Assembly (NCBI GenBank): GCA_963641885.1
Contig: CAVIDY010000006.1
Location: forward strand, 5,574-69,573
Direction: 5' to 3'
DNA: 64,000 nt
Source: Bacteroidaceae bacterium
GTDB lineage: Bacteria; Pseudomonadota; Alphaproteobacteria; RF32; CAG-239
Shown here piece after piece: positions 4,851 through 63,745 of the stretch. Both the position numbers and the translations under genes were made by a program. Position 1 is the stretch's first letter; every line of letters begins with the position of its first letter. The notes below the pieces were generated by a model. The model had not been told where the DNA came from. It was given only the letters and a program-made list of their open reading frames with translations, and searched no databases.

Positions 4851-7800
4851 ATGCGGACTAAATTTATAAAACTTGCAGCTATCGCCTTTATTTGCACCAC
4901 AACTGCACGGGTGTCGCAGGCATATAACCTGTCGCCGATATCGTTTGAAAATTTCTACCGCATTGCCGCAGATGGAGATTTGCAAGGGCTGAAAGACGTG
5001 CAACGCCGCGGTCTGAACCTTGACTCTACAAATATGCACGGCGACACGGCGGTATGCGTTGCAATAAAAAGACAAGACTATCTAGCTTATAAAACGCTTA
5101 TCCGCGCCGGAGCAAAAAGCAATCCGGATTGTGTTGAGAGCATACCAGAATATGCCCATAAAAACTTTTTAGCCAACTATAATCAAAAATACGCCGCACC
5201 GAAAACTCCGACTAATTGGACCAAGAACGGCACCGCCTTTTTGGTTGGCGGAGGCATCGCCGCCGGTATTGTGGCATTAGCTGGTTCAGGCGGTGGCGGC
5301 GGAGGCAGCAAAGGCAGCAGCAATGCCGATGATGCATCCAACACAGCCAAATGCGACTTAAACCCTTGTGCTGAAGGCTGCTATGAAAACATTACCTGCG
5401 CAGCAGGCTATCAATGTACACAATATGAATCCAAATGCAATTTAGGCTGCACCAAATGCGAACAAAAGCCGGAATGCGCAAATGTTCCCGAATGCACTAA
5501 AGGCTGCTACACCAATTTAACCTGCCAGTCCGGCTATACCTGCACAAAATACAACAAATGCAGTGGCTGTGACAAATGTGAAAAAGTAACCGAAATACCT
5601 GACACTTCAAATTCCCGCAACTGTAAAGATTTTAACAGCTCTAAAAACTACTGCAACACTTGCGATGACGGCTATACCTCAGTTAACGGCTCATGCAAGC
5701 AGAGTGCTCCGGAACATTGCAGCAACTATGATGTATCCAGTGAAACCTGCTCAGTTTGCGAAACTGGCTATAAACTATCAGCAAACAAACGCGTTTGTTT
5801 GGTTGACGCAGAAATTGACCCCACAACCTGCACCGCGGCAAACTATCCGCTGCAAAGTTGTCCGACCAACGCGCAAACCTGCGACAACTGCACGCCGACA
5901 GGCGCAACTTCGCCGATTTATAAAATCAACGCCTGCAAAACCGGCTACACTCTCAGTTCCGACAAAAAATCATGTGACGCCATTCCGGCCGGAACCTGCA
6001 CCGCTGCGAATTATCCCCTGACCACCGCTCCAACCAATGCGGCTTATGAATCCTGCCTCGACGGCTCTACGCCACGCTACAGAATAACCTCCTGCAACAC
6101 TGGTTACACACTCTCTTCCGACGGCAAATCATGCGTTGTAGATTCAACGAAAACATGCAACACTACTATATACCCTTTAACTTCATGTCCGAGCAATGCC
6201 TTTTGCCTTAATTGCACTGACTCCTCCGGCACACACTATTTAATATCACAGTGCACAAATGGCACAAATCCATCAGCGGACAATACCAGATGCGAAACTA
6301 CTTGTGATACCACATCATATCCGCTTTCCGCTTGTCCGGCTGGAGCCGTTTGTGGCAGCTGCACTGATGCAAACGGTACGCATAACAAATTTTTGAAATG
6401 TATGGCTGGCTACACGCAAGATGGCTTAAATGAAGCCTGCGTTCAACAACAAATCACCGAAAACTCTACAGATGTGATAAATGATACACAGCTGACGGTT
6501 TCAGGAGCAAACAGCACTATTGTAGATACAACAACCGTTAAAAAATGGCGTTTAGGTTTTACAAACTATACAGCAGATGGAAAAACCGTAAATTCAAATT
6601 TGTATAACGCCTATAGCACAGATGCTTCCATTACCATAAATCAAGATAATTTTGACAGTAATTTGCCTTTAGCCGGACTTGCTTCAATGTATTCAAACAT
6701 TCCGGTTACCATAAACGCTTATAAGCATTCCGGAACTATCAATATAACCACCAACAGCAACAATATTGTATATGGAATTCTATCTTCTGGAACCGCCTAC
6801 AACTCCTATAACGGTAACGGAACAATTAAACTTATCCGTAATTTTACGGATAGTAACGAGCAAGGTTACAGACTGGTAGGAATGGGCGTAAATTATGAAT
6901 ATTTAAATGACATATCGGGATTAGGGCAAAAAGCTCGACACACAGATTACGAAAAGACTTTTTTGTATAATGCTTTTGGCGGAACTGGTTTGATTCAGAT
7001 AGAAGCAACTCAAGGTGAAATCATCGGAATGCGCGGTGAAAATGCCATAAACGCTGCGGAAGGCGGAAGCGGTACAATTAAATTAACTGGTTATAAAAAA
7101 CTTTATGGCATAGGATATAATGATAATGCTGATAACAATACTTCAATAAAAATAAACGCTTACTCCTCAAACAATCAAGACACTGTCGGAAAAATTGTTA
7201 TCAATAATAATAATTTAGATTCAGTTGGTGTCGGCACTGCCGTTGGAATATATAGTAATAATTTGGCTGCTTATAATGCCTACGGAAAAGGTGCGATTGG
7301 ATACATAACCATAAACGGTGCGGGTATCGGTATGCATAACGGTAACAATGCCGGCAACGAAGGAACCGGATATATAACCATAAACACTAATGTTGAAAAT
7401 CAAAAACTTTACGAGATTATCGGCATTGAAGGAAGCCAAATTCGCAAAACGAATTACAATGGGGTCGGAACAGGCAGTAAAGGCTATATAGACATTACAG
7501 TTGATAAAGAAATTACAAAGGGTGTTAATGATGATTACACCGAAGCTGTATATGGAGTAAAAGATAATGTCGACAACGGTTCGCCGGACGGCGGTGTGGG
7601 AAGCATCACCATTACCGACACCGGAAACAACAACATAATCGGTATCAACGGCGGCGGAAACCATAAAAATTCCGTTGTCAAAATAAAAAGCAATGCGGAC
7701 AGCACCAAATCCATTTACGGCATCACAGACATTTCGCTTGATACCAGTAGAAAGGCAACCCTGACTGCATTTACCAATCAAAACTACGGTACGATTAATA

Positions 7801-10550
7801 TAACTTTACGTGACAGCGGTAATGCCTACGGAATATACGCGTCTGAAAATGTGCTAAATTCCGGTAATATTACCATAACAAATTCAAGAGATGATTCCAC
7901 ATCCCAAGCCTATGGTATTTATTCTGTAACTCCAAACAATAATAATTTAAACACCGGAAGCATCATTTTAGAATATGGAATAAAAACTGTAGGTCTGGTA
8001 AATGTTAATAACGGTATCGGCGGTTATATAAATTTGTCACCTGTTGGACCATTATATACATACGTTCCTGCAACCTCATATTTTTATAAATCCGAAGCTA
8101 CAGGTATTTTAGCCTCACGCCCTAATAATTACAGCGCTGATGAAATAATAACCATTACAAATGGTTCTGCTGCTTCACCAGCAACGTCTGCGTCAGATTC
8201 AAAAAATGGCTACATATTCATCACTGGTTCAGGAAGAAATCAAAATAAAGATTCTGCTGATAGCGAGGCATTACCTAATCTTGTCGGTATACGCGGAGCG
8301 ACTAATACAAATATTTTTAACTACGGAGTAATCTCTTTATCTGGGAACAGCATTGCAGGAATACTAAATGAATATTCAGGAAAAATTTATAACTATGGTT
8401 TTGTAAATATAGTAACAAAACTCTCTACTGCTCTTGGAATCTACGGCAGCTCTGATACAGAAATTTATAACGAAAAGGATATTATACTCACATCCTCTAT
8501 GGGAGCATATGCCAATAGGCGCTGGTACGGAATTTATGGAGGAACTGCTACAAATAATGGTACTATCACAATGAATATCAATGATGGCTACGAAGCAAAA
8601 GCTATGAGCGGAACTATAGTTACAAATAATGGCAATATACTTTTCAACACTACTTCCGCCACAGCTTCTCTAGGCATAAGTAATAATAGTTATAAAAATT
8701 CATATTTAACAAATAATGGAAATATACAAATCAATAGCGGTTCATACTTTACATACGGTATTTATGCTATTTATGGTGAATTGTCAGACAATACATACTC
8801 TGTAACCGCAATAAACAGCAAAACCGGCACTATTTCTATAGACAATATTTCTGCATATACTGCATATGGAATGTACGCCGATAATAAAGCTCTAATACAA
8901 AATAGCGGAAAAATAACTATCAATAATTCCGCTAATGCTAGAGGAATGTCTGCTGATGAAGGCAGTACAGCCCAAAATGATGGCAGTATAACACTTGATA
9001 ATATAACCGGTAATGCATACGGCATCTATTCAAACGCATCTAATGTTGTTAATACTGGCAGCATCACCCTTACAGATGTAGATGAGAGCAACTCTTATGG
9101 TATTTACGCCGTAAACGGCTCTAAGGTTTATAACAGCGGGACGATAACCATCAACGGCGAGTCCTATAACAAAAACGAAGCTGACGGCAAATTTATTTAT
9201 ATAGACAACACCTCATCTATGGTAAATGAAGGTGAAATTTCGACTACCTCCCTTTTTGACACGAACGCTTTAGGCGGCGGAAAATTTGCATTGAGCAAAA
9301 ACGGAAAAATCAGCGCACCAAAAGTGAAAGGCACTATCACGGCTGATGCGGAAATCACTTCCGGCGGATTTGATAAAACTTATGCCAACACCGACGCTTT
9401 TTCCGGCGACACCAGCGAAGTTAAGCTCAATTCCGGCTCCGCCCTGTTTGATGTGACGCTCAAAGACAACGACATTGTCATGACTATGAAAGATTTTGAC
9501 GAGGTTGTAGACGACAAATCACTCGCAGCTTATCTGCAGCGCAACTATGACGCCAAACGCAACGAAGATTTGTTTAACTCACTCAAACTCCACGCCACAG
9601 CAAGCTCGCTGAACAATTCGCTGAATCAACAGCTTGGTTTTAGTCTGCTGCCTAACTTTGCGCAAGAAAATATGAATGTCTTTCGCAGCCTGTCCAACCT
9701 TGTAACAGACACTATGTTTGCGCAAGATTTAACCAACGAGCGTATGATGGTCGGCTATGACTATCTCGGTCAAGATCGTTCGAACAAAGGTCGAGTAACC
9801 GGCTATGAAAACACAGCCAACAGCGCTTATTTCCTCGCCGACACCAAGCTGAACAACCGCCAGCGCTTTGGCTTGGGCGTCGCCCTCACCCGCTTCAACT
9901 CGGACTATGACGATGACTCCAGCCGCAAAGCCACATTGGCTCAAGCTTTGGCTTCTTATATGCATGACTTTGGCAACAGCTGGAAATACGCAGGCTTGCT
10001 GCGCGCCGGTTATGCCGACGGCGACTATAAACGCCAAAACAACGGCACTCGCATCAGCGGCGATACCAGCGATATTTTATATGGCTTTAACAACGAACTG
10101 CGTTACAGCTATGACCTTGGTCTTGCTGTGTTGGAACCGCAGTTGGAACTAAACGCTTCCGGCTATTATCAGCGCAAAATCAAAGAAGACAACGCTAAAA
10201 CCGATGCATTGCAAATTAAAGGCACAAACAACCTGTCGCTGGAAAGCGGCGCCGGTTTATATCTTAGCAAAGAAGCGGTTTACGGCGAAAACGGACACGT
10301 AAAAGGACGATTGGGCGGCAGCTATTACCGTGAATTATCGCAGCCGTATCACACCATGCGCGCCCGCGTTAACGACACCGAAGGCTACTACTTGATTGAA
10401 AGCACGGATATTTTTGACCGTGACAGAATAGTTGTGCGAGCCGACATCACTTTCAGCTGGAAAGCTCTCGACTTCTATCTGCGTGGCAGCCAGTTTATGG
10501 AAAACAAGCATACAACCGTCATCAACGCTGGTATTAAATATAACTTTTAA
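4851..10550 (+). CDS. Giant autotransporter-type outer-membrane protein (signal peptide, ankyrin repeat, Gly-rich hydrophobic segment, Cys-rich modules, repetitive passenger, C-terminal beta-barrel)
   Basis: 1899 aa. N-terminus MRTKFIKLAAIAFICTTTARVSQA is a signal peptide. ANK-like HGDTAVCVAIKRQDYLAYKTLIRAGAKSN. Long G/N/T/I-rich passenger with YGI/GIY repeats. The C-terminal ~290 aa have an alternating beta-strand pattern ending ...NAGIKYNF (terminal aromatic). Confidence 0.8.
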   Translation: MRTKFIKLAAIAFICTTTARVSQAYNLSPISFENFYRIAADGDLQGLKDVQRRGLNLDSTNMHGDTAVCVAIKRQDYLAYKTLIRAGAKSNPDCVESIPEYAHKNFLANYNQKYAAPKTPTNWTKNGTAFLVGGGIAAGIVALAGSGGGGGGSKGSSNADDASNTAKCDLNPCAEGCYENITCAAGYQCTQYESKCNLGCTKCEQKPECANVPECTKGCYTNLTCQSGYTCTKYNKCSGCDKCEKVTEIPDTSNSRNCKDFNSSKNYCNTCDDGYTSVNGSCKQSAPEHCSNYDVSSETCSVCETGYKLSANKRVCLVDAEIDPTTCTAANYPLQSCPTNAQTCDNCTPTGATSPIYKINACKTGYTLSSDKKSCDAIPAGTCTAANYPLTTAPTNAAYESCLDGSTPRYRITSCNTGYTLSSDGKSCVVDSTKTCNTTIYPLTSCPSNAFCLNCTDSSGTHYLISQCTNGTNPSADNTRCETTCDTTSYPLSACPAGAVCGSCTDANGTHNKFLKCMAGYTQDGLNEACVQQQITENSTDVINDTQLTVSGANSTIVDTTTVKKWRLGFTNYTADGKTVNSNLYNAYSTDASITINQDNFDSNLPLAGLASMYSNIPVTINAYKHSGTINITTNSNNIVYGILSSGTAYNSYNGNGTIKLIRNFTDSNEQGYRLVGMGVNYEYLNDISGLGQKARHTDYEKTFLYNAFGGTGLIQIEATQGEIIGMRGENAINAAEGGSGTIKLTGYKKLYGIGYNDNADNNTSIKINAYSSNNQDTVGKIVINNNNLDSVGVGTAVGIYSNNLAAYNAYGKGAIGYITINGAGIGMHNGNNAGNEGTGYITINTNVENQKLYEIIGIEGSQIRKTNYNGVGTGSKGYIDITVDKEITKGVNDDYTEAVYGVKDNVDNGSPDGGVGSITITDTGNNNIIGINGGGNHKNSVVKIKSNADSTKSIYGITDISLDTSRKATLTAFTNQNYGTINITLRDSGNAYGIYASENVLNSGNITITNSRDDSTSQAYGIYSVTPNNNNLNTGSIILEYGIKTVGLVNVNNGIGGYINLSPVGPLYTYVPATSYFYKSEATGILASRPNNYSADEIITITNGSAASPATSASDSKNGYIFITGSGRNQNKDSADSEALPNLVGIRGATNTNIFNYGVISLSGNSIAGILNEYSGKIYNYGFVNIVTKLSTALGIYGSSDTEIYNEKDIILTSSMGAYANRRWYGIYGGTATNNGTITMNINDGYEAKAMSGTIVTNNGNILFNTTSATASLGISNNSYKNSYLTNNGNIQINSGSYFTYGIYAIYGELSDNTYSVTAINSKTGTISIDNISAYTAYGMYADNKALIQNSGKITINNSANARGMSADEGSTAQNDGSITLDNITGNAYGIYSNASNVVNTGSITLTDVDESNSYGIYAVNGSKVYNSGTITINGESYNKNEADGKFIYIDNTSSMVNEGEISTTSLFDTNALGGGKFALSKNGKISAPKVKGTITADAEITSGGFDKTYANTDAFSGDTSEVKLNSGSALFDVTLKDNDIVMTMKDFDEVVDDKSLAAYLQRNYDAKRNEDLFNSLKLHATASSLNNSLNQQLGFSLLPNFAQENMNVFRSLSNLVTDTMFAQDLTNERMMVGYDYLGQDRSNKGRVTGYENTANSAYFLADTKLNNRQRFGLGVALTRFNSDYDDDSSRKATLAQALASYMHDFGNSWKYAGLLRAGYADGDYKRQNNGTRISGDTSDILYGFNNELRYSYDLGLAVLEPQLELNASGYYQRKIKEDNAKTDALQIKGTNNLSLESGAGLYLSKEAVYGENGHVKGRLGGSYYRELSQPYHTMRARVNDTEGYYLIESTDIFDRDRIVVRADITFSWKALDFYLRGSQFMENKHTTVINAGIKYNF

Positions 10551-10557
10551 TCAGAAA

Positions 10558-10586
10558 TGAGGCGCCGCAAAATCAACGGCGCCTCA
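10558..10586. terminator. Bidirectional hairpin between convergent genes
   Basis: Perfect 10-bp stem tgaggcgccg / cggcgcctca with a 9-nt loop, between the autotransporter and arsR-like stops. Confidence 0.6.
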
Positions 10587-10607
10587 AATTTATCAAAAAT
10601 TTTGCTT

Positions 10608-10961
10608 TTACAACGGACATTTAATATCTAAAATATCATCCAAAGCGCGGTGGAGCAACGCGGCTTCTGCGGTTTCAGCCAGTTTATAATACATCTCTTT
10701 CCCCTCGCGGCGGCTTTCCAGCAAACAGGCTTGTTTCAGCAAACGCAAATGATGCGACACCGCTGGCGAGCTCATATTTACCGAAACCGCAATATTGTTC
10801 ACGCACATTTCATTATGGCACAACAACCACAAAATTTTTAATCTTGTAGCATCAGAAATCAGCTGAAAAGTCTCGGCTGTCCGCAAAAAAGCCTTGTCGT
10901 CCGGCGTATTCTGCAAGTTTTCATTGTTGTTATGATGATGTAAATGCTGTGTTTTTTCCAT
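10608..10961 (-). CDS. ArsR/SmtB-family metalloregulator with His-rich N-terminus
   Basis: 117 aa. MEKTQHLHHHNNNEN..., followed by a wHTH: DATRLKILWLLCHNEMCVNNIAVSVNMSSPAVSHHLRLLKQACLL. Confidence 0.8.
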   Translation of the reverse strand: MEKTQHLHHHNNNENLQNTPDDKAFLRTAETFQLISDATRLKILWLLCHNEMCVNNIAVSVNMSSPAVSHHLRLLKQACLLESRREGKEMYYKLAETAEAALLHRALDDILDIKCPL

Positions 10962-11512: not shown

Positions 11513-12787
11513 ATGTCTAAATTTCTGCGATATTTCCGAGCCGGCGTTGCTGTTGTTATCGGCGTGCTGTCTGTTTTGGCTTTTAGCGGCTTGTTTTACA
11601 AAGTAAAAATTTTTGACATTCAAATAACCTCGTTGTTTCAAAATATTGCCATAAATTTTTCATTTTTCGCTTTAGTTCTATTAGGCGGAATAATTTTGCT
11701 AACTTTATTGTTTGGACGCCTATATTGTTCCACCCTCTGCCCGCTTGGACTATATCAAGAATTTTTAATGCTGCTGTTCCGTCGCAAAAACAAAATGCCT
11801 CCCAACCGCCCTTATAAATACTTTTTAGCGGCGCTTGCTTTTGGCATATTATTCGGCGGTTCGGTTTATTTGGTTCGCCTCATCGACCCTTACACCTTGT
11901 TTGGTTCGGCAATCAGCGGAGCTTGGTTCGGACTTGGTTTTATAGCATGTTTGAGCGTGCTCGTTTGGTTCAAAAGCCGCATTTTTTGCACTAACATCTG
12001 CCCTGTCGGCGCTCTTTTAGGACTCCTTGCCAAATTTTCGCTTTGCAAAATGTACATAAAAAACGACAGCTGTGTTGCTTGCGGTTTATGCGCCTCCAAA
12101 TGTCCGACCGGAAGCATTGACTATAAAAATCACTCTATAAACAATGAAACTTGCATCAAATGTTTCAAATGCCTTGACGGCTGCAAACGCAACAGCATCT
12201 GCTACGGACTGCCGCCGTGCCCAAAGGTAGAATTTAACTTAAACAGACGGAAACTGCTAATCGGCGGAGCTGCTGCCACGCTGTTCGCCATAGCCGTTAA
12301 AGATGGTATGCAATTAGCTAAAATCACTGCGGCAAAAGTAAAAAAAACTATTCTGCCTGCTGGCGCACAAAGTCCCGAAAAATTTGCTAATCGTTGCTTA
12401 AACTGCAATTTATGTGTGCAAAACTGCCCAATGAAAATTATAAAAAAAGCAAACCCAAACTGCTCAACCATACACATTGAATATAATGGTAATTTTTGCG
12501 ATTATAATTGCAACAAGTGCTCGCAGGCTTGTCCTTCGGGCGCGCTAAAACGGCTGACTTTGGCAGAAAAACAAAAAACGCAGATTGCCATTGCCTCTAC
12601 CGATGAAGAAATTTGCATCAGTTGCGGTTTCTGCGTTGAAGTATGCCCTCGGCAGGCTATTAGTCTGAAAAGAGGCGAATTTCCACAATTTAATCCAAAC
12701 CAATGCATTGGCTGCGGCAAATGCAAATCCATTTGTCCAGTCAAAGCCATCAGTATAAAACCAGTTGCTGAACAGCGGATTTTATAA
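11513..12787 (+). CDS. Membrane-bound 4Fe-4S polyferredoxin (NapH/MauN-like)
   Basis: N-terminal TM helices are followed by several CxxCxxCxxxCP clusters (CVACGLCASKCP, CLNCNLCVQNCP, CISCGFCVEVCP, CIGCGKCKSICP). I prefer the ATG at 11513, which is preceded by aagga, over the TTG at 11507. Confidence 0.8.
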   Translation: MSKFLRYFRAGVAVVIGVLSVLAFSGLFYKVKIFDIQITSLFQNIAINFSFFALVLLGGIILLTLLFGRLYCSTLCPLGLYQEFLMLLFRRKNKMPPNRPYKYFLAALAFGILFGGSVYLVRLIDPYTLFGSAISGAWFGLGFIACLSVLVWFKSRIFCTNICPVGALLGLLAKFSLCKMYIKNDSCVACGLCASKCPTGSIDYKNHSINNETCIKCFKCLDGCKRNSICYGLPPCPKVEFNLNRRKLLIGGAAATLFAIAVKDGMQLAKITAAKVKKTILPAGAQSPEKFANRCLNCNLCVQNCPMKIIKKANPNCSTIHIEYNGNFCDYNCNKCSQACPSGALKRLTLAEKQKTQIAIASTDEEICISCGFCVEVCPRQAISLKRGEFPQFNPNQCIGCGKCKSICPVKAISIKPVAEQRIL

Positions 12788-35357: not shown

Positions 35358-36353
35358 TCACATACCGATTTTTTGATTTAGCTTTAAAATGTCGACAATA
35401 GAAAAAACTGTATAGAATTGTTCAAAAACACGGTCGACTTTCTTTTTGTTGACATTGCTTCTGAAAAACGAACAAGCCTCAAACATATCTTGCTTGGTCG
35501 GGATTGCCAACAGCAACTGGTTATTCTCAAAACTGAATTGTATAGATTTACCGCCGTACAATTCGCTTAATTTCAGCATACGCTCCATAAACGCCGTCGT
35601 TAGCAGATAGCGCGCTTCTATTTGGTCGGAAGAATAAACTTCAAACAAATCTTCAAACCTCATATCTTCCAATTTTACCCGCTGCAAACCGGATATACGC
35701 TTGAACACATTGAATATTCCTTTGTCTTTCAAAACAACAGTGCGTCCCTTAAAATTTTTGTTCATTGTCAATAAAACGCATATCCCTTGAAACACCGTTT
35801 TTTTCTTGGTCTCACGGTGTCCCAAACGGCTGCCGTTTGAACTGATATCCATAACTTCATATGAGGTTTGATTTTGCAAAGTTTCTTCAGAAATCGTAAT
35901 GCCGACGTTTTTATAGGTGCCGAAAAAAAAGTCGTCGCCTTTATGTAAATTATAACTATCGAACAGTTCAGATTTTTTCAAAAGTGCGTCCGGCAGATAG
36001 CGCTCGTTTTCATAGCTGAAACTGCCGAAAAAATTTGCAAAATCAGCCATAATAGTTTTTTTAGCTTTCTTTTTATAAAAATAAATCGGTCCGCGCAAAA
36101 CCATAATTACCCCGCCGGACAGCACCAGCACCATACCAATATCCGGCAAATTATCATTAGATAATGTAATCAGCGTCAACAGCACCAACGGATAAAAAAT
36201 CACCGCCATTATCAACAGAACAATAAACATTCCAAAATAACGGCTGCGGATTTTATCGTTTTCTTGCAGCTTAGGCTGCAAAATCCGCGCATAATAATCA
36301 TCAAATTTTGCTTTAAGTTCTTTGAAATTTTTATCAGCCGTCAAATCAATCAT
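35358..36353 (-). CDS. DUF3137-like membrane protein
   Basis: 331 aa. A TM hairpin is followed by ...VVLKDKG...VKLEDMRFEDLFEVYSSDQIEARYLLTTAFMERML, which I recognise as DUF3137-like. Last gene of the LemA operon. Confidence 0.55.
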   Translation of the reverse strand: MIDLTADKNFKELKAKFDDYYARILQPKLQENDKIRSRYFGMFIVLLIMAVIFYPLVLLTLITLSNDNLPDIGMVLVLSGGVIMVLRGPIYFYKKKAKKTIMADFANFFGSFSYENERYLPDALLKKSELFDSYNLHKGDDFFFGTYKNVGITISEETLQNQTSYEVMDISSNGSRLGHRETKKKTVFQGICVLLTMNKNFKGRTVVLKDKGIFNVFKRISGLQRVKLEDMRFEDLFEVYSSDQIEARYLLTTAFMERMLKLSELYGGKSIQFSFENNQLLLAIPTKQDMFEACSFFRSNVNKKKVDRVFEQFYTVFSIVDILKLNQKIGM

Positions 36354-37272
36354 GCGCCGCAGCCATTTCCGCCAAAGTTTCTAAAATGCAGATAATATTA
36401 AATGCTTTTTCCAGCTGCTTATCAACTTGTTCAAATTGCTTTTCTGTTCCTGCTGAATGCCAAACACTGCTTTTCTGATATGCTAACTCACCGTTTTGCA
36501 AAAATATATCAAGCTTGCTGCCGTCCAGCTGGAAATATAGCTTAGACGCATGAAACGCCTCGCGCAAATCCAGCAAATTTTCGAACAGCGCCGCACAGAC
36601 TACATAATTTTTGACGCTGTTGCTTTCGGTGAAAGTTAAAAAGTAATTTGAAATCGGCACGGAACACGCCGTTTTTTCTAAATCATTATATTTTTTCTGC
36701 TTAAAAAAGCCGCCTTTTTCAAACAAATTAAGTTTGCCTTTTATTGACTGTGAAAGCTGGCAGCTCAGCAATATCCCCGCTCCTGTTTTGTTTTTTTTCT
36801 TATCATCGGCGCTATACAGAACAATGCTTTGCAAAACAAACTTTTTGTTTTCATCTGCAACCGCAAAATTTTGCAAAGTTTCATTGTGCGGCGGTAAAAA
36901 ATCTCCGCTCAAAACAACCGGTTGCTCATATTGAGTCTGCCAGTTGCCGTAATATTTGAAAAAATCATCTAAAATATGGAAATTATGTTCTTTAACAAGG
37001 TGTTTAGTATAAAAAAACAAGAACAAAATTGACGCAACAGCGACCAAGCTTAATTGCTCCCACGAAAGCGACTTGCCGTTAACTAAGTGATGAAACAACA
37101 CAATCAAAACATTTGCACAATTTGCAAAAAACAAAATACCGAAATAAAGCCAAATTTTGCTTTTAACTTTTTGCCGATATTTATTTTCATTTTCCAGCAA
37201 AGGCGTAATGTTTTGCGTTAAAAAATCCTGCAACTCATCTTGCTGTTCAATATTTTCCGCCATTTCTACCAT
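36346..37272 (-). CDS. Membrane protein with the same architecture as the DUF3137-like neighbour
   Basis: 308 aa with an N-terminal cytoplasmic segment, a TM hairpin and a ~200-aa C-terminal domain. Overlaps the downstream gene by 8 nt. Confidence 0.5.
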   Translation of the reverse strand: MVEMAENIEQQDELQDFLTQNITPLLENENKYRQKVKSKIWLYFGILFFANCANVLIVLFHHLVNGKSLSWEQLSLVAVASILFLFFYTKHLVKEHNFHILDDFFKYYGNWQTQYEQPVVLSGDFLPPHNETLQNFAVADENKKFVLQSIVLYSADDKKKNKTGAGILLSCQLSQSIKGKLNLFEKGGFFKQKKYNDLEKTACSVPISNYFLTFTESNSVKNYVVCAALFENLLDLREAFHASKLYFQLDGSKLDIFLQNGELAYQKSSVWHSAGTEKQFEQVDKQLEKAFNIICILETLAEMAAAHD

Positions 37273-37283
37273 TATAGTCCACC

Positions 37284-37865
37284 CTATTTAAAATAATTGC
37301 TGCTGTTTATCGGCTGTTTTTCTATTTCGCTTATTTCAAAAAATGGCGTATCGGCATAGTTAACGCCCACCAGCTTAGCCACCAAATTGCCTGGGAAAAT
37401 TTCAACGGCGTTTTTCAAACTGTTAACATTGGAGTTATAAAAACGGCGGGCAGCCGAAATATGCTCTTCCACTTCATTCATACTTTGCATTGCAGCAATC
37501 ATCGTCTGATTAGATTTCAAGTCTGGATAATTTTCCAAAGATACTTTAAAGTCATTTAGTTTTTGATTGAGCAGACTTTCCAACTCCATTTTTTCTTTCG
37601 GCGAACCGACAAAGGTATTGGACATAGCCTTAGTGCGAAGTTCGGTAAGTTCGGTCATCAAAGATTTTTCATGCTCCATAAACTTCGCCGCCATCTGCAG
37701 CATATTCGGAATCAAATCATAGCGTTTTTTTAATTGCACATCAATATCCGCCGCCGATTCTCTAACTTTGTTGCGGACCATTATCAACCGTACATATTGC
37801 GCATAAAACAACACAATAACCACAACACCGCCAATTACCCACGGTTCAGACCAATTTATTTCCAT
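37284..37865 (-). CDS. lemA: LemA family protein
   Basis: 193 aa with an N-terminal TM. ...QLKKRYDLIPNMLQMAAKFMEHEKSL...ARRFYNSNVNSLKNAVEIFPGNLVA is classic LemA. Confidence 0.85.
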   Translation of the reverse strand: MEINWSEPWVIGGVVVIVLFYAQYVRLIMVRNKVRESAADIDVQLKKRYDLIPNMLQMAAKFMEHEKSLMTELTELRTKAMSNTFVGSPKEKMELESLLNQKLNDFKVSLENYPDLKSNQTMIAAMQSMNEVEEHISAARRFYNSNVNSLKNAVEIFPGNLVAKLVGVNYADTPFFEISEIEKQPINSSNYFK

Positions 37866-39742: not shown

Positions 39743-40576
39743 TTACTTGTTTGAAACCGGAATGCTTATCATCGGCACGCTTCCGCCAAACATATACTGT
39801 GGAAGTTTACCATCCCATTGCTGCACGGCTTCATACTCGGTCAAACCTTTGTTTTTAGCCAAAGCAGCGGCTTTAATTTCCATAGCCTCTGCTTCAGCCT
39901 TGGCAGTTATAACCTGCTGATTAGCCTCTTCGGTAACACGGCGCGTGTTGTTAACTGCCTCTTGAGCTTTTTGCTCAGCGATAACCTTGTCTTCAATTGC
40001 CCCTTCGAACTTGTCAGAATAGTCAATGTCTATCAGTTGAAACGAAATGTTTTGGAAATAATTTCTTCCCAAATTTTCGTTTAACTTTTTGATAATTTCC
40101 AAACGAGCTTTGTCTCGATTGCTAACCAAATCTTGAGCTTGCCACTTACCGATAACGTCTTTAATCACGTCAGCCAGCACCGGAATAATTTTTTTCGCCT
40201 CATAGTCCATACCAGTGGTCTCATAAAGCTGATAAACATTATTCGGATTCAGATTATACGTAAACGTATATTTCAGACTCGCGGTCTGAACATCTGACGT
40301 GTAAGTAGACACAGAGTCGGTCATTTTTTGAGTACGCACGTCAATCGGAATCATCTTTGCCACAAAAGGAGCTTTAAAGCCAATTCCGTTAACATAACTC
40401 TGCGGCTCAACCTTGCCGAACATCACTTGAACACCGCGGTAGCCCGGATCTATCACATAAACCGAACTCCAAGCAAGAACCATTACAAACACGGCAACGA
40501 CGCAGATGATTGACCAGGTTGACCACTTTAACCAGCTTTTATTGCCGTTACTACTGTTTCCAAAATAATTACTCAT
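39743..40576 (-). CDS. Prohibitin-type SPFH/band-7 protein
   Basis: 277 aa with an N-terminal TM. VIDPGYRGVQVMFGKV..., and a C-terminal coiled coil AEQKAQEAVNNTRRVTEEANQ. Confidence 0.8.
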   Translation of the reverse strand: MSNYFGNSSNGNKSWLKWSTWSIICVVAVFVMVLAWSSVYVIDPGYRGVQVMFGKVEPQSYVNGIGFKAPFVAKMIPIDVRTQKMTDSVSTYTSDVQTASLKYTFTYNLNPNNVYQLYETTGMDYEAKKIIPVLADVIKDVIGKWQAQDLVSNRDKARLEIIKKLNENLGRNYFQNISFQLIDIDYSDKFEGAIEDKVIAEQKAQEAVNNTRRVTEEANQQVITAKAEAEAMEIKAAALAKNKGLTEYEAVQQWDGKLPQYMFGGSVPMISIPVSNK

Positions 40577-40708
40577 AATCTAAAAGTTTTTTGAAGTTAA
40601 TAATATTAAAAATTATAAAAAAGTGATGTTTTAGTACTCTTTTCACAGACAAAAGTCAAGAAAATTGCAAAAAAAAATATAAGTGTAATTTTTTTTATAA
40701 AAAAAGTG

Positions 40709-40737
40709 TTGCAAATAAAAACTTTATGCTTTATACA
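40709..40737 (+). promoter_or_regulatory. Putative promoter of tRNA-Lys
   Basis: TTGCAA-17 nt-TATACA, ending ~20 nt before the tRNA 5' end. Confidence 0.45.
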
Positions 40738-40756
40738 ATACATACATTGTTGATAT

Positions 40757-40833
40757 GCGTGCGTAGCTCAGTTGGCTAGAGCAACTGACTCTTAATCAGT
40801 GGGTCCAGGGTTCGAATCCCTGCGCGCGTACCA
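40757..40833 (+). tRNA. tRNA-Lys (anticodon CUU), CCA encoded
   Basis: Hand-folded cloverleaf: gcgtgcg-ta-gctc/agttggcta/gagc-a-actga/ctCTTaa/tcagt-gggtc-caggg/ttcgaat/ccctg-cgcgcgt-a-cca. The acceptor stem has two G-U pairs. Confidence 0.85.
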
Positions 40834-40842
40834 ATAACAAAG

Positions 40843-40866
40843 AAACTCCCTTTTGGGAGTTTTTTT
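40843..40866 (+). terminator. Rho-independent terminator of tRNA-Lys (copy 1)
   Basis: aaactccc-tttt-gggagttt stem-loop running into T7. Confidence 0.8.
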
Positions 40867-41015
40867 GTTATACGCGCAGTAAGGGAAAGAACCCTGGAAC
40901 GAAGGGTTCGACAAGGACGAGAGGCAGGCGGGAGCATGCCGGTGAGCGTCCGCGAACGAGGACGCAGCGGCGAAGTGAAACAAAGCCAATCCCTGCGCGC
41001 GTACCAATAACAAAG

Positions 41016-41039
41016 AAACTCCCTTTTGGGAGTTTTTTT
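41016..41039 (+). terminator. Identical terminator, repeat copy 2
   Basis: Same sequence as 40843-40866, shifted by 173 nt. Confidence 0.7.
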
Positions 41040-41188
41040 GTTATACGCGCAGTAAGGGAAAGAACCCTGGAACGAAGGGTTCGACAAGGACGAGAGGCAG
41101 GCGGGAGCATGCCGGTGAGCGTCCGCGAACGAGGACGCAGCGGCGAAGTGAAACAAAGCCAATCCCTGCGCGCGTACCAATAACAAAG

Positions 41189-41212
41189 AAACTCCCTTTT
41201 GGGAGTTTTTTT
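41189..41212 (+). terminator. Identical terminator, repeat copy 3
   Basis: Same sequence as 40843-40866, shifted by 346 nt. Confidence 0.7.
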
Positions 41213-41600
41213 GTTATACGCGCAGTAAGGGAAAGAACCCTGGAACGAAGGGTTCGACAAGGACGAGAGGCAGGCGGGAGCATGCCGGTGAGCGTCCGCG
41301 AACGAGGACGCAGCGGCGAAGTGAAACAAAGCCAATCCCTGTCAGCAACTTATAAAATACTACAAAAACACTACATAGAAGTCGCCGAAAACATAACCTC
41401 TATAATCGTTTAAGCTGCCAAATAAACACACTTATTCACAAGAACGAGCATGTTTATAGTTGATTTATTTTTGCTAAAACTATTTATCGTCTAGGCACAA
41501 AAACAATCTTCTGCTATGCTGAACATACATTTACACCGCCGCAGAACAACCTAAACAACTAATACATCTCCTTTATAGCAAACCAGCCGCTTCTTTTATT

Positions 41601-42311
41601 TTAATCGGCGCCCAATAAATCGCGGATAATCTCTCCAGCCATCATCAGTCCCACAACCGCTGGAACATAGGATATACTCCCAGGAGTCTGCCGTTTATTG
41701 CTGTCTTCTGCCGTTCCCAGCGGAGTAATAGCCGGTTCTTCAGAATAAACAACTTTAAAATGTTCTATACCGCGTTTGCGCAGCTCTCGGCGCATAACTT
41801 TCGCCAGCGGACAAACCGACGTTTTGCTTATATCCGCCACCTTAAAATCGCCAGCATTAAGTTTATTTCCTGCTCCCATAGCGCAAATAATCGGAGTATT
41901 TGCTTTTGCCGCCTGCTGCACTAAAGCGATTTTTCCAGCAACCGTATCAATTGCATCAGCCACATAATCATATTGGGCAAAATCAAAACTATCCGCAGTT
42001 TCCGGCAGATAAAAACAATTATGGCAAACAATTTTCAAATTCGGATTTATATCCAAAAGCCGCTGCTTAGCCGCCTCGGTTTTCAAAATGCCGATTGTGG
42101 AATGCAGCGCCAAAATCTGCCGGTTGATATTGCTTAAACTCACTACATCATTATCAACCAAATCAAGTGTTCCTACTCCGGCTCGAGCCAAAGCCTCTGC
42201 CACATAGCCGCCGACGCCGCCAAGTCCGAAAACCGCCACCCGTGAATTTTTAAGTTTTTCGGCACCTTCAGTGCCAATCAGCAATTCTGTACGAGAAAAC
42301 TGTGTAATCAT
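41601..42311 (-). CDS. tcdA: tRNA threonylcarbamoyladenosine dehydratase (ThiF/E1-like)
   Basis: 236 aa. VAVFGLGGVGGYVAEALARAGVGTLDLVDNDVVSLSNINRQ. Confidence 0.8.
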   Translation of the reverse strand: MITQFSRTELLIGTEGAEKLKNSRVAVFGLGGVGGYVAEALARAGVGTLDLVDNDVVSLSNINRQILALHSTIGILKTEAAKQRLLDINPNLKIVCHNCFYLPETADSFDFAQYDYVADAIDTVAGKIALVQQAAKANTPIICAMGAGNKLNAGDFKVADISKTSVCPLAKVMRRELRKRGIEHFKVVYSEEPAITPLGTAEDSNKRQTPGSISYVPAVVGLMMAGEIIRDLLGAD

Positions 42312-62512: not shown

Positions 62513-63745
62513 ATGATGAAACCGAATTTTTTGGATATGTCAAAACTGCTGACTTCTAAACGAATTTACCGCCTTTTTGACGCTGTGGAAGCGCATGGAG
62601 GCACTTTGCGTTTTGTCGGCGGTTCCGTGCGCGATACTTTAGCCGGCAGACAAAATAATTTTGATTTGGATTTGGCATCAGACTTATCTCCCGATGAATT
62701 GGTGGAGGCTTGTCAAGATTACGGTTTAAAAACCGTACCTATTGGGCTAAAATTCGGAACCATCGGCGTAATTATAGATAATCAGGTGCTTGAAGTAACA
62801 TCTTTGCGCAAAGATGTTAAAACTGACGGTCGCCATGCTGAAGTTGAATTTACCGATGATTGGAGCGTAGATGCTTCCCGCCGCGATTTAACAATCAATG
62901 CCGTTTATGCTGACTTATACGGCAATGTGTTTGACTACTACAACGGCATAAATGATTTGGAAAACGGCGTTGTGCGTTTTATAGGCAATCCGGACGAGCG
63001 TATTAAGGAAGATTATCTGCGCATTATGCGTTTTTTCCGATTTTATTCCATTTTCAGTAAAAAGCCTATAGACAAAGAAGCTTTGAAAGCCTGCATAGCC
63101 AACAAAGACGGCTTGCGCACTGTTTCTATTGAGCGTGTGCGGGACGAGCTGTTTAAATTGCTGGTTACTCCAAAAGCCGCCGAAACTTTGCAGATTATTT
63201 TTGATAATGACATTTTAAGTTACTTTTTACCAAATAAATCAACGCATTTTGACGCCTTAAAACGTCTGACCGAACTTGTCTCCGATATGAAATATGAAGG
63301 CAATTTTCTGCGCCGACTTTTTGTGTTGTATCAGCCTAATGCGTCAGAAGCCGAAAACATTGCCCGCACTTTGCGTTTTTCTAAAAAGCAAAAAGAAAAC
63401 TTTGTGAATTGGGCAAAAATAAACTTAATGCCGGAAAATATTTCCACGCCTATTCAGCGTTTGCGTTTTATTTATCGCTACGGAAAAACCTTTTGTTTGG
63501 ATAAAATTCTGCTCACTGCCGCCATTTTCGGCATAGACAGCTCCAAAGTCACCAATGTGCTGCAAGAAGTTGAAGACGCCGTTGTGCCGATTTTCCCATT
63601 GCGCGGGCGCGATTTAATTGACCATAACCTTGCCAAAGGCGAAAAAATCGGGCAAGCTTTAACTTTGCTGGAGCAACAGTGGATTGACAGCAACTTCAAT
63701 CTTACCCGTGACGAATTATTGGAATCCGCTAAAAAAACAGTTTAA
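62513..63745 (+). CDS. CCA-adding enzyme / poly(A) polymerase family nucleotidyltransferase
   Basis: 410 aa. LRFVGGSVRDTLAG....DLDLA, ...RRDLTINA..., ..EDYLRIMRFFRF. Confidence 0.85.
   Translation: MMKPNFLDMSKLLTSKRIYRLFDAVEAHGGTLRFVGGSVRDTLAGRQNNFDLDLASDLSPDELVEACQDYGLKTVPIGLKFGTIGVIIDNQVLEVTSLRKDVKTDGRHAEVEFTDDWSVDASRRDLTINAVYADLYGNVFDYYNGINDLENGVVRFIGNPDERIKEDYLRIMRFFRFYSIFSKKPIDKEALKACIANKDGLRTVSIERVRDELFKLLVTPKAAETLQIIFDNDILSYFLPNKSTHFDALKRLTELVSDMKYEGNFLRRLFVLYQPNASEAENIARTLRFSKKQKENFVNWAKINLMPENISTPIQRLRFIYRYGKTFCLDKILLTAAIFGIDSSKVTNVLQEVEDAVVPIFPLRGRDLIDHNLAKGEKIGQALTLLEQQWIDSNFNLTRDELLESAKKTV

Follow-up and report, generated by a model that had tools for sequence, protein, structure and literature searches.

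The window analysed here is a stretch of 64 kb, in which an intact tRNA-Lys(CUU) gene runs into a tandem array. The same order of SPFH gene, tRNA-Lys, array and ThiF gene is found at the syntenic locus in independent assemblies of related gut Alphaproteobacteria. The features of the locus in the window are as follows.

40709-40737, plus strand: promoter-like TTGCAA-17 nt-TATACA upstream of tRNA-Lys, inferred from reading the sequence
40757-40833, plus strand: intact tRNA-Lys(CUU) with encoded CCA (ARAGORN; Rfam RF00005, 69.5 bits)
40815-41341, plus strand: tandem array of three units and the first 8 nt of a fourth (Tandem Repeats Finder)
40834-40870, plus strand: intrinsic-terminator hairpin, stem-loop 40843-40862 and T-run 40863-40869 (sequence)
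41354-41375, plus strand: motif AAAATACTACAAAAACACTACA on the right flank, containing the direct repeat AATACTACAAA and marking the right boundary of the array across orthologous loci

A preliminary description of this DNA had reported a perfect array of three 173-bp units at the 3' end of tRNA-Lys. Tandem Repeats Finder (period 173, 3.0 copies, 100% matches, 0 indels, score 1054) and a script comparison agree with it base for base. As assembled, 40815-40987, 40988-41160 and 41161-41333 are identical letter for letter, and the partial fourth unit consists of AATCCCTG at 41334-41341, after which the sequence diverges. A 43-nt core probe matches the window three times, against 0 matches expected from 100 shuffles. 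The terminator that had been described inside each unit is present in all three (AAACTCCC-TTTT-GGGAGTTT followed by a T-run, with further stem-loops at 41016-41035 and 41189-41208); a terminator scan lists the same hairpins, but assigns them to the minus strand. The earlier G+C counts for the core (72/117, 61.5%) and for the next 59 nt (20/59, 33.9%) proved exact on recount, and the whole window has 41.1%.

Several identities of the unit could be set aside. It is not a CRISPR array, as the 173-bp units are repeated in full and without unique spacers, and a coding unit was rejected since small ATG frames on either strand are not kept between the Lys and Ser versions described below; both judgements were already made in the preliminary description. 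So was the statement that the window holds no mobility gene: among the 28 window proteins scanned, Pfam detected neither an integrase nor a transposase domain (four of the 28 have no Pfam match at all), and a P4-type integrase query found no match by phmmer among all 55 window ORFs of at least 100 aa. The Rfam scan that had been proposed for the unit, which the preliminary description could not assign to a family, returned only tRNAs with Rfam 15 (locus at E <= 10, whole window at the gathering threshold, four relatives at E <= 1). The best sub-threshold matches over the array are hairpin-derived, namely mir-974 with 23 bits (threshold 90) and Phe_leader with 18 (threshold 55), and the Ser, L035, L036 and L041 versions of the sequence match no Rfam family either. 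When checked as a dispersed repeat of the REP, BIME or MITE type, the unit has no copy in the 64-kb window outside the array.

Anatomy of the module

The array itself is secondary to a single module of ~125 nt downstream of a tRNA. Many relatives have this module in one copy, it is conserved in three syntenic lineages, and it also occurs beside three other tRNA species. In the ground state of one module, the order is tRNA, terminator, and a ~125-nt GC- and purine-rich module whose end is a copy of the tRNA 3' strand. A covariance model built for the module finds three copies in the window with cmsearch and no further one in the 64 kb, also with filters off. These copies and the parts of the module, given for the first unit, are the following.

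40871-41006, plus strand: module copy 1 (covariance model, cmsearch, 141.6 bits)
41044-41179, plus strand: module copy 2 (covariance model, cmsearch, 141.6 bits)
41217-41352, plus strand: module copy 3, with shortened 3' strand (covariance model, cmsearch, 123.9 bits)
40871-40898, plus strand, again at +173 and +346: inverted imperfect copy of the tRNA 3' third (sequence comparison)
40903-40911, plus strand: direct copy of tRNA positions 51-59, AGGGTTCGA (sequence comparison; helix table)
40907-40987, plus strand, again at +173 and +346: conserved "cargo" common to the Ser and Thr versions (alignment, RNAalifold, pair counts, curated helix table)
40907-40910 and 40918-40921, plus strand: helix P3
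40923-40929 and 40934-40940, plus strand: helix P4, loop GGGA
40941-40945, plus strand: GGUGA motif
40946-40951 and 40960-40965, plus strand: helix P5
40969-40971 (GGC) and 40985-40987 (GCC), plus strand: helix P6
40988-41006, plus strand: 19-nt direct copy of tRNA positions 59-77, T loop to CCA (sequence; 3' strand of helix P1)

Read in order, the module consists of an inverted tRNA 3' third, a short loop, a direct T-arm 5' half, a conserved, purine-rich centre that forms three to four hairpins (P3, P4, and P5 with GGUGA) and a direct 3' strand. A conserved centre is thus held between arms copied in both orientations from the adjacent tRNA, which is an unusual design. The preliminary description overlooked that its "core" starts with the tRNA 3' third copied in inverted orientation. 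Reverse-complementing this block gives CTGCGCG(CG)TA for TACGCGCAG and an exact match to tRNA positions 48-57 for GAACCCTGGA. Each unit therefore holds a ~96-nt quasi-palindrome, and tRNA end, terminator and inverted copy fold as a ~96-nt hairpin (-61.8 kcal/mol). The AGGGTTCGA copy pairs with 40892-40895 as helix P2, its last part belonging to P3, and the closing helix P1 forms between the inverted block and the direct copy of the tRNA 3' strand. This 3'-end copy recurs at 41161-41179 and, truncated to 8 nt, at 41334-41341. In single-copy relatives, where this copy is truncated, just AATCCCTGCGC (CCCUGCGC) is retained, which is exactly the P1 3' strand.

Relatives and other tRNA contexts

The orthologous tRNA-Lys loci, whose comparison had been proposed earlier, carry the module at every locus recovered, and the number of units varies. 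One unit is present at L010, L011 and L016, at least two at L017, L021 and L022, three in the window and at L002, and at least four, non-identical, at L020; one or two are found in the L034-37 and L040-45 lineages and in that of L075, where the tRNA is tRNA-Thr. The tRNA-Lys(CUU) sequence is 100% identical across all syntenic relatives. The right junction of the array is orthologous at all compared loci, with AAAATACTACAAAAACACTACA kept in the window lineage and in L040-L045, and the terminator hairpin is retained in the L034-37 and L040-45 lineages with altered stem and loop letters. The units of the window array are identical to one another, as are those of L002, but five positions differ between these two arrays. 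With head-to-tail copies whose number varies among close strains, the array qualifies as a variable-number tandem repeat. It resembles bacterial minisatellites in its units of more than 100 bp, strain-variable number and homogenised copies, but its unit is seeded by a tRNA 3' end and holds a structured module and a terminator. The locus offers a natural VNTR marker with which strains of these uncultured gut bacteria could be typed.

The module is retained beside tRNA-Lys(CUU) in three lineages, with SPFH protein identities of 96-100%, 87% and 74%. Between the window and L040, the module is 76% identical, more than the promoter spacer (65%) or the neighbouring coding DNA (67%). Between the window and L036, a closer pair, it is 74% identical, less than the flanks (83-88%), which fits replacement or recombination better than simple purifying selection. 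In more distant SPFH/ThiF neighbourhoods (P0026, P0136, P0189, P0133, P0143), the tRNA is no longer beside the gene.

Homologous modules were also found after tRNA-Ser(UGA) (L008, L064), tRNA-Ser(GGA) (L073) and tRNA-Thr(UGU) (L075, two copies); L064 was the sole further locus gained from relatives of the ORF flanking L008. In each tRNA version, 10-16 nt of the T-arm 5' half of its own tRNA recur as an exact inverted copy. A direct copy of the tRNA 3' end, 17-19 nt long and starting in the T loop, is present in three of the four tRNA versions (19 nt in the window, 19 nt in L075, 17 nt in L008) and is degenerate in L073. The types of P3 and P4 occur among the modules in all four possible pairings, and these mosaics hint at the existence of other copies that would exchange sequence.

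Phage and plasmid records searched by BLASTN with the window unit or with the modules of L075 gave only short chance or terminator matches. In IMG/VR, an exact 21-mer and a two-gap pattern each gave 0 loci, and the pattern GGAGAAAG...GTTYGAC...AGGC gave L075 again and eight new loci, all of them chance matches by the covariance model. A degenerate P4 pattern gave eight loci, two of which are genuine. Four candidates from genome and metagenome scans (L005, L006, L007, L009) were rejected as chance matches in GC-rich genomic or coding DNA.

Predicted RNA structure and transcription

A functional RNA structure is expected to be kept through compensatory changes. The RNAalifold consensus has 30 pairs, with 95% of cells paired and seven pairs changed on both sides. 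The observed covariation score was reached by 0 of 500 shuffles, a control known to be optimistic for related sequences, and slid-partner controls collapse. The covariation comes from only ~6-7 independent lineages. In P4, AU and GC pairs are swapped at two positions, an internal G.A mismatch is invariant, and its loops are mostly of GNRA type (GGGA, GGAA, GUGA, GCAA, AGAA, GCUA, UUUA, GGA). P5 always lies 3' of GGUGA and is formed by seven different stems, and a U.G pair of P3 in other versions is G-C in L073. G.U pairs are frequent on the plus strand, and these together with the GNRA-type loops occur on the plus strand only. A single unit folds at -78.7 kcal/mol (z = -7.3). The compensatory changes, mostly GNRA-type loops, invariant G.A and G.U wobbles point to a plus-strand RNA in the shared centre of the module. 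The outer helices are less constant: P1 is missing in L075 and short in the L040 lineage, and in P2 changes without compensation are tolerated (among them GAACACU and GGUCCCU). Some of the "structure" may therefore merely reflect how the element originated.

Mimics of the acceptor/T minihelix are known from the tRNA-like domain of tmRNA and from RNase P model substrates. The module resembles them in that P1 of the window lineage joins the 3' strand of the tRNA's own T-stem and acceptor to an unbroken complement, with ACCA left as a tail, and in the motif GGUUCGAC, as in tmRNA 5' regions. The idea of a tmRNA, in one or two pieces, came from GGUUCGAC, GCAUGCCG and the succession CCA, spacer, 5' strand, and was rejected: the module has no ARAGORN or Rfam match to tmRNA or tRNA and lacks both a tag reading frame and an intact T arm, and neither ARAGORN in the window nor any Rfam tmRNA model at E <= 10 gave a hit. 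An RNase P minihelix mimic as the general function fits the window lineage, but not L040, L041, L044 and L075; these four and L010 lack the CCA end and full acceptor pairing. A diversity-generating retroelement, considered from variation at A positions of GGGAAAGAACCC, has no support, since no reverse transcriptase lies nearby and other substitutions are of mixed type. A CsrA-type GGA sponge and guide RNAs (C/D, H/ACA, bridge RNA) were not adopted, the resemblance being one of motifs without a partner gene.

The only promoter candidate for the whole block of tRNA and array is the inferred TTGCAA-17 nt-TATACA site, a motif conserved in the syntenic lineages L036 and L040. A consensus scan of 40550-41650 reported no promoter, and so none between terminator and module. 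In L075, the module abuts the CCA of tRNA-Thr with no terminator in between. From the lack of a promoter-like site of its own and from this arrangement in L075, the module would be co-transcribed with the tRNA, its transcript being a 3' extension of the tRNA transcript formed by read-through of the terminator. In the Lys lineages, the terminator is strong and lies 5' of the module, which argues against high expression there.

Small RNAs derived from tRNA transcripts are known: the 3' external transcribed spacer RNA of the E. coli leuZ operon is a short, unstructured sponge located before the terminator. The module is similar in lying on the same strand as the tRNA with no promoter of its own. 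It differs in that it lies past the terminator in most lineages, is ~125 nt long and multi-helical, and has tRNA-derived arms. We consider it about an even chance (probability roughly 0.5) that the module is a structured RNA co-transcribed with its tRNA, and that the array is a variable-number duplication of tRNA end, terminator and module. As for its function, our guess is a stable RNA trailer of the tRNA, whose binding partner would be a protein or another RNA, and it may be further guessed that more copies give a higher dose. A literature search found no published description of such a tRNA-linked element, and an RNA element of this type is undescribed. If functional, it would represent a new family of tRNA-linked RNAs, present in Alphaproteobacteria of the human and animal gut as well as in other bacteria.

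Origin of the array

The module anatomy and the copy-number polymorphism suggest how the array may have arisen. The terminal copy and the genuine end of the tRNA, 162 bp apart, make up a direct repeat of 11-19 bp, and slippage or unequal recombination between these repeats would yield the first 173-bp duplication. Homologous unequal crossing-over could then expand, contract and homogenise the array, and internal units would in this way regain a full CCA end and a terminator. The preliminary description had ascribed the perfect identity of the units to very recent amplification, concerted evolution under selection, a rolling-circle-type origin or an assembly artefact. Recent or ongoing amplification is upheld, since unit number varies among close strains, and the caveat about assembly was legitimate.

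A 173-bp repeat longer than the assembler k-mer would form a loop in the graph, and traversal of this loop with bubble popping could give three perfect copies. Consistent with such an artefact, many independent short-read assemblies end inside the array (L001, L003/L004, L012-L015, L017, L019, L021, L022), L020 was scaffolded through it with Ns, neighbouring units are non-identical where resolved (L004, L020), and both fully traversed arrays, those of the window and L002, have exactly three identical copies. The array is in any case a recurrent source of contig breaks in metagenome assemblies of these bacteria. However, loci with one, two, three and at least four units and distinct unit variants come from several independent samples and assemblers, and two-copy arrays with diverged units are found in the L036, L040, L043 and L075 lineages. 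Tandem duplication at the locus is therefore biological and an artefact as its explanation improbable, while doubt concerns only the exact count of three units in the window and their perfect identity, which short-read assemblies cannot certify. We give similarly little credence to a functionless scar, left by a tandem-inversion duplication or an island deletion at the tRNA terminator and now drifting as a neutral minisatellite. Snap-back template switching is a general mechanism of tandem inversion duplications, and the direct/inverted/direct layout around quasi-palindromic centres (terminator loop, GGAACGA) fits it, as do an inverted block that tolerates uncompensated changes and the truncated 3' ends in many lineages. 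The central cargo, on the other hand, is not tRNA-derived and is common to four tRNA contexts in different organisms; its helices are kept by compensatory changes, with invariant G.A and GGUGA. Neutral DNA is also not expected to remain 76% identical at 74% protein identity while the adjacent spacer drops to 65%. The rolling-circle origin would make the array a DNA copy of a viroid-like or retrozyme-like replicon, its multimer cut by a ribozyme to 173-nt monomers. It is exceedingly improbable, despite the identical, highly structured head-to-tail units: no ribozyme family is matched at the locus (Rfam, E <= 10), a single copy is the common and ground state, unit boundaries are tRNA-derived repeats, a terminator lies within the units, and the locus is chromosomal and syntenically inherited.

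Prophages, ICEs and genomic islands whose integrase crosses over in the T loop leave attL/attR repeats of tRNA fragments (PMC9897764), and the module, with its repeat from T loop to CCA downstream of an intact tRNA that stays functional, is alike in this respect, as is the adjacent integrase prophage in one relative (L075). The direct repeat of the tRNA 3' part, from T loop to 3' end, is thus present here. The DNA between the repeats measures 154 bp instead of kilobases and holds no integrase or other protein gene, the L075 integrase lying outside its repeats. Moreover, it is conserved like an RNA gene, vertically inherited, and includes an extra inverted tRNA copy. The earlier statement that this is not a classical tRNA-targeted island accordingly stands as regards the missing integrase and kilobase-sized cargo, but the T-loop-to-CCA repeat is an att signature and L075 has its integrase prophage. 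CIMEs and ICEs form accretion arrays with several att copies in a row, in which non-autonomous units lack a recombinase; known CIMEs are of kilobase size. The serial att copies at one locus are similar, but units here are 160-180 bp, and homologous unequal crossing-over explains the expansion at least as well.

A miniature non-autonomous integrative element of 160-180 bp (tRNA 3' end as att, terminator, structured core) is possible but doubtful. A T-loop-targeting tyrosine integrase encoded elsewhere would insert it into tRNA 3' ends, arrays would form by repeated integration (accretion) and later unequal crossing-over, and the core would be a cis-acting part or RNA cargo. The repeat begins at T-loop position 58/59 for Lys and Thr and at ~60 for Ser(UGA), and runs on to CCA. 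Such an identity block is expected for T-loop crossover integrases (Williams 2002, as cited in PMC9897764). The last tRNA-end copy in L035 and L042/L043 has one or two substitutions and is followed by a different terminator, as expected if the element brought terminator 1 and terminator 2 belongs to the host. The L075 order (tRNA-Thr, module 1 with exact att copy, terminator, module 2 with diverged att copy) is not produced by a simple unequal crossover, and a prophage with a P4-type integrase lies 1.6 kb beyond these modules. The same cargo occurs at four tRNA species, with P3/P4 combinations that indicate exchange among copies. Against such an element, no integrase was detected either in the window or at any of ~30 syntenic Lys loci, and inheritance is vertical through lineages down to 74% SPFH identity. 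Only unit number was seen to vary: every tRNA-Lys locus recovered in synteny has at least one module, and no empty site was seen among them. To our knowledge, a double-stranded circle of 160-180 bp is smaller than any known attP site of an arm-binding integrase. Att recombination leaves the inverted copy of the local tRNA unexplained, the AAAGCC immediately left of the repeat is unlike a T-stem half-site, and modules are rare in IMG/VR (two true loci in four scans) and absent from phage and plasmid records. We regard as unlikely, too, a new kind of tiny mobile element with ~75 nt of its own sequence, entering the T loop/3' end of tRNAs or tRNA-gene fragments and building its terminal helices from inverted and direct copies of the local tRNA. 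It could move by an integrase in trans, single-strand hairpin transposition or an RNA-mediated step; the P3-P4-GGUGA-P5 RNA would be its active or recognised part, and tandem arrays its amplification products.

If mobile in either manner, the module would be among the smallest tRNA-targeting elements known and would account for "orphan" tRNA-fragment repeats without an integrase. In a single-copy strain, the junction ...AAAGCC|AATCCCTGCGCGCGTACCAATAAC... could come only from an excised circle or a fresh duplication. The tRNA-end copies of the array are also potential secondary attachment sites for prophages.

The array in the window and in close relatives

Tandem Repeats Finder reports a single array with a period of 173, 3.0 copies, 100% matches and no indels, which begins inside the 3' end of a tRNA gene:

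40757-40833, plus strand: tRNA-Lys(CUU), found by ARAGORN and Rfam
40815-41341: tandem array

The three-unit array is a real feature that the preliminary description observed correctly. Comparison by script bore out that the three 173-bp units are identical and that the 8-nt start of a fourth unit follows the third, and the G+C counts given for the core (72/117) and for the next 59 nt (20/59) were exact on recount. A 43-nt core probe matched three times in the window against zero expected, and a covariance model found no further module copies in the window beyond the array, even with filters off. The neighbors are ordinary chromosomal genes, with SPFH/Band-7 on one side and ThiF/TcdA, a sulfatase-family protein, RuvX and TolB on the other. 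Mobility genes were not detected, in line with the preliminary description: no integrase or transposase domain was found in 28 window proteins, and a P4-type integrase used as phmmer query against 55 window ORFs returned nothing. Elsewhere, the window holds an ORF of 1899 aa (4851-10550), two DUF3137 paralogues (35358-37865; annotation in relatives places a LemA gene alongside), and a CCA-adding-enzyme/poly(A)-polymerase family gene (62513-63745), although the tRNAs here encode CCA.

One genome collection was scanned with a 21-mer from the core, and the same locus was observed in two other genomes, a bin titled '[Ruminococcus] gnavus' and a Hadza gut MAG named 'uncultured Alphaproteobacteria bacterium'. 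The former contig (L002, CAVEOB010000009.1) carries a TolB-RuvX-ThiF-tRNA-Lys-SPFH locus of gut Alphaproteobacteria type despite its title, and the bin is evidently mislabelled or contaminated. Contigs coding for a near-identical ThiF brought in a dozen further human and pig gut assemblies. The orthologous tRNA-Lys loci, which the preliminary description had singled out for comparison, were read in tRNA orientation; the array recurs in them and is not unique to the window, and the number of units differs.

Table. Units at the SPFH-tRNA-Lys-ThiF locus of the window and its close relatives
Single unit: L010, L011, L016
Single unit, very probably: L012-L015, L019
At least two units: L017, L021, L022
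Three units: window, L002
Four or more units, interrupted by a scaffolding gap: L020

The right-hand junction of the array, AATCCCTGCGC followed by ACACTTTAGAAAATACTAC, is orthologous in all these assemblies, so the block predates these strains. Copies are identical inside the window array and inside the L002 array, and these two arrays differ from each other at 5 positions. Adjacent units of the Hadza arrays differ at 2-5 positions, and many contigs end within the array. Just to the right of the array (window 41354-41375) lies AATACTACAAA, a direct repeat present once or twice. It is conserved in two lineages, occurring in the window, L002, L003, L010 and L040-L045, and in L042/L043 it is retained despite a 570-bp insertion ahead of it. 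The repeat could bind a protein or serve the convergent neighbor as a promoter element.

Anatomy and plus-strand folding of the unit

After the tRNA CCA, each unit continues with a terminator hairpin and then a block that repeats tRNA positions ~47-73 imperfectly and in inverted orientation (TACGCG--CAG / GGGA / GAACCCTGGA). With the terminator and the 3' third of the tRNA, this block makes up a ~96-nt quasi-palindrome (-61.8 kcal/mol). A short loop (GGAACGA in the window, GGAGAAA in most relatives) then leads into a direct copy of tRNA positions 51-59 (AGGGTTCGA), followed by ~75 nt that are not tRNA-derived, are 69% purine and are common to all tRNA contexts; a direct copy of tRNA positions 59-77 ends the unit. 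The order of copies thus gives a direct (tRNA), inverted, direct layout, with a foreign 'cargo' in place of the T loop. Two dinucleotides of the inverted block (window 40883-40895, and equivalents in L003, L004 and L020) are hypervariable between units and strains (GGG[AA/TG/AG]AG[AA/GT/CT/CC]CCC), and the partner strand AGGGTTC is invariant.

One unit folds at -78.7 kcal/mol (z = -7.3). For 18 distinct units, RNAalifold returned a closing helix, P1, and several hairpins, in which 95% of cells pair and 7 pairs are changed on both sides, with covariation support from only about six or seven independent lineages. None of 500 shuffles reached the observed covariation score, and pairing drops to 24-52% when partners are slid by 1-3 columns. 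G.U pairs are common on the plus strand. Together with the helices tabulated below, these features argue for an RNA of the plus strand.

Table. Helices curated from 13 representatives
P4: 7 positions; AU/GC exchanges at 2; internal G.A invariant; closing pair C-G
P4 loops: GGGA, GGAA, GUGA, GCAA, AGAA, GCUA, UUUA, GGA; mostly of GNRA type, on the plus strand only
P5: always starts directly after conserved GGUGA; seven different stems
P3: UUCG/CGAR, or GUCG/CGAC in L073 (a tRNA-Ser(GGA) locus); loops of 4-9 nt

P1 is absent in L075 (a tRNA-Thr(UGU) locus with two modules) and short in the L040 lineage, and the 5' strand of P2 accepts uncompensated changes; the arms of the module may therefore be partly relics, with conservation lying in the centre.

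The preliminary description could assign the unit to no familiar RNA family, and Rfam 15 returns tRNA only. ARAGORN detected no tmRNA in the window, phage and plasmid records gave no homologue, and literature searches yielded no description of such a tRNA-linked module; integration scars consisting of tRNA fragments are reviewed in one paper (PMC9897764). The module is a previously undescribed, structured, tRNA-linked element, new among tRNA-associated repeats and ncRNA candidates, and its architecture hints at an unfamiliar kind of linkage between an RNA element and tRNA genes.

Distant lineages and other tRNA genes

SPFH homologues with 87% and 74% protein identity marked two further lineages in which tRNA-Lys(CUU) still lies beside the SPFH gene, and all loci of both carry the element in 1 or 2 copies. 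The ground state is one conserved module, of which the window array is an amplified copy and no isolated freak. In L035, L042 and L043, the last copy has a complete tRNA-like 3' end with CCA and 1-2 substitutions, and the terminator after it is a different one. This end is cut back in L010, L041 and L044, and the shortest such end, AATCCCTGCGC, is exactly the strand that pairs with the module 5' end. Between the window and L040, identity is 76% for the module, 65% for the promoter spacer and 67% for adjacent coding DNA; between the window and L036, from the closer lineage, the module is only 74% identical and the flanks 83-88%. Module divergence is thus not clock-like. On the minus strand of L036/L037 (1915-2046) and L034 (1914-2042), a second module breaks off after GCGAATG, and the unrelated DNA that it adjoins varies by strain: L034/L035 have a GH108 lysozyme-like gene there and L036/L037 a 347-aa ORF. 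The array in this lineage adjoins a strain-variable region.

A metagenome scan with the most conserved 22-mer, which found L008, and an IMG/VR search with a degenerate P4 pattern and a covariance-model filter, extended the family to other tRNAs, with two true members from IMG/VR (L075 and L073):

L008: tRNA-Ser(UGA) and terminator, homologous core, tRNA-Ser 3'-end copy, terminator copy
L064: close variant of L008 without the second terminator
L075: tRNA-Thr(UGU), directly module 1, exact 19-nt tRNA-Thr-end copy, terminator, module 2, diverged copy
L073: tRNA-Ser(GGA), terminator, one module

In every tRNA context, the T-arm 5' half of a module's own tRNA recurs in the module as an exact inverted copy of 10-16 nt, and all modules except the degenerate L073 carry a 17-19-nt direct copy of the 3' end of that tRNA, from the T loop. 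Partial 5'-half copies of the local tRNA (20 and 24 nt exact, reaching the anticodon loop) also precede the intact tRNA-Ser(UGA) and tRNA-Thr(UGU) by 160-220 nt, at L008 929-1010 and L075 about 11640-11700 (minus strand), so that these tRNAs are flanked on both sides by their own fragments. The L008 copy runs on into GA-rich GCGUAAGCGAAGAUAGGCGAGCGAGAAA, reminiscent of the GCGAA/GAGCGAG motifs of the module. In L075, a chloramphenicol acetyltransferase gene (10336-10959) and an ORF of no assigned function (8234-9409) lie between the modules and a P4-type integrase prophage (ParB-methyltransferase, terminase gpA).

Expression, array formation and alternative origins

No promoter-like site was found between terminator and module, the gap is only about 10 nt, and in L075 the module abuts the tRNA CCA with the terminator after it. 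Together these suggest, as the simplest reading, that the module would be a 3' extension of the tRNA transcript; its synthesis would be constitutive in the Thr version and would require terminator read-through in the Lys versions. P1 and the ACCA tail resemble an acceptor/T minihelix in the window lineage; because this feature is not general, no function is built on it. Where only one copy is present, the tRNA end and its copy form a direct repeat of 11-19 bp with 162 bp enclosed. The first 173-bp duplication could have arisen by slippage or short-homology recombination between these repeats, and the 173-bp homology would later permit ordinary unequal crossing-over. Such a course would explain the differing copy numbers in close strains, the identical copies inside some arrays, the differences from array to array, and the internal units with a full CCA end and terminator ahead of a last unit that retains the old truncated end. 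The quasi-palindromes may destabilize the array further. We give this account, a resident RNA whose array behaves as a VNTR, a probability of about 0.5.

That the array is an assembly artefact is improbable; its variation in copy number and sequence indicates that tandem duplication at the locus is biological and dynamic, and exact copy number and perfect identity are unreliable in any single short-read assembly. A functionless scar is equally improbable, and a rolling-circle replicon is a very faint prospect.

In the main rival account, the module would be a miniature mobile element that depends on an integrase, which we consider rather doubtful. Repeats from T loop to CCA are a hallmark of tRNA-targeting integrases, and in L035 and L042 the last copy is followed by a second, different terminator that looks like the host original. 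Integration of a small circle predicts the arrangement in L075, where a terminator-less module separates the tRNA from an older terminator-plus-module block, and these modules have a P4-type integrase prophage next to them. The cargo has clearly moved among tRNA species, and P3 types and P4 types occur in all four combinations, so copies exchange sequence. However, there are no integrases at any Lys locus, no empty site was found, the module is inherited vertically, and its inverted tRNA copy is not accounted for by integration; its size is, to our knowledge, below that of known arm-type attP sites. If such an element carries the RNA as its cargo, the resident-RNA and mobile-element readings can be reconciled.
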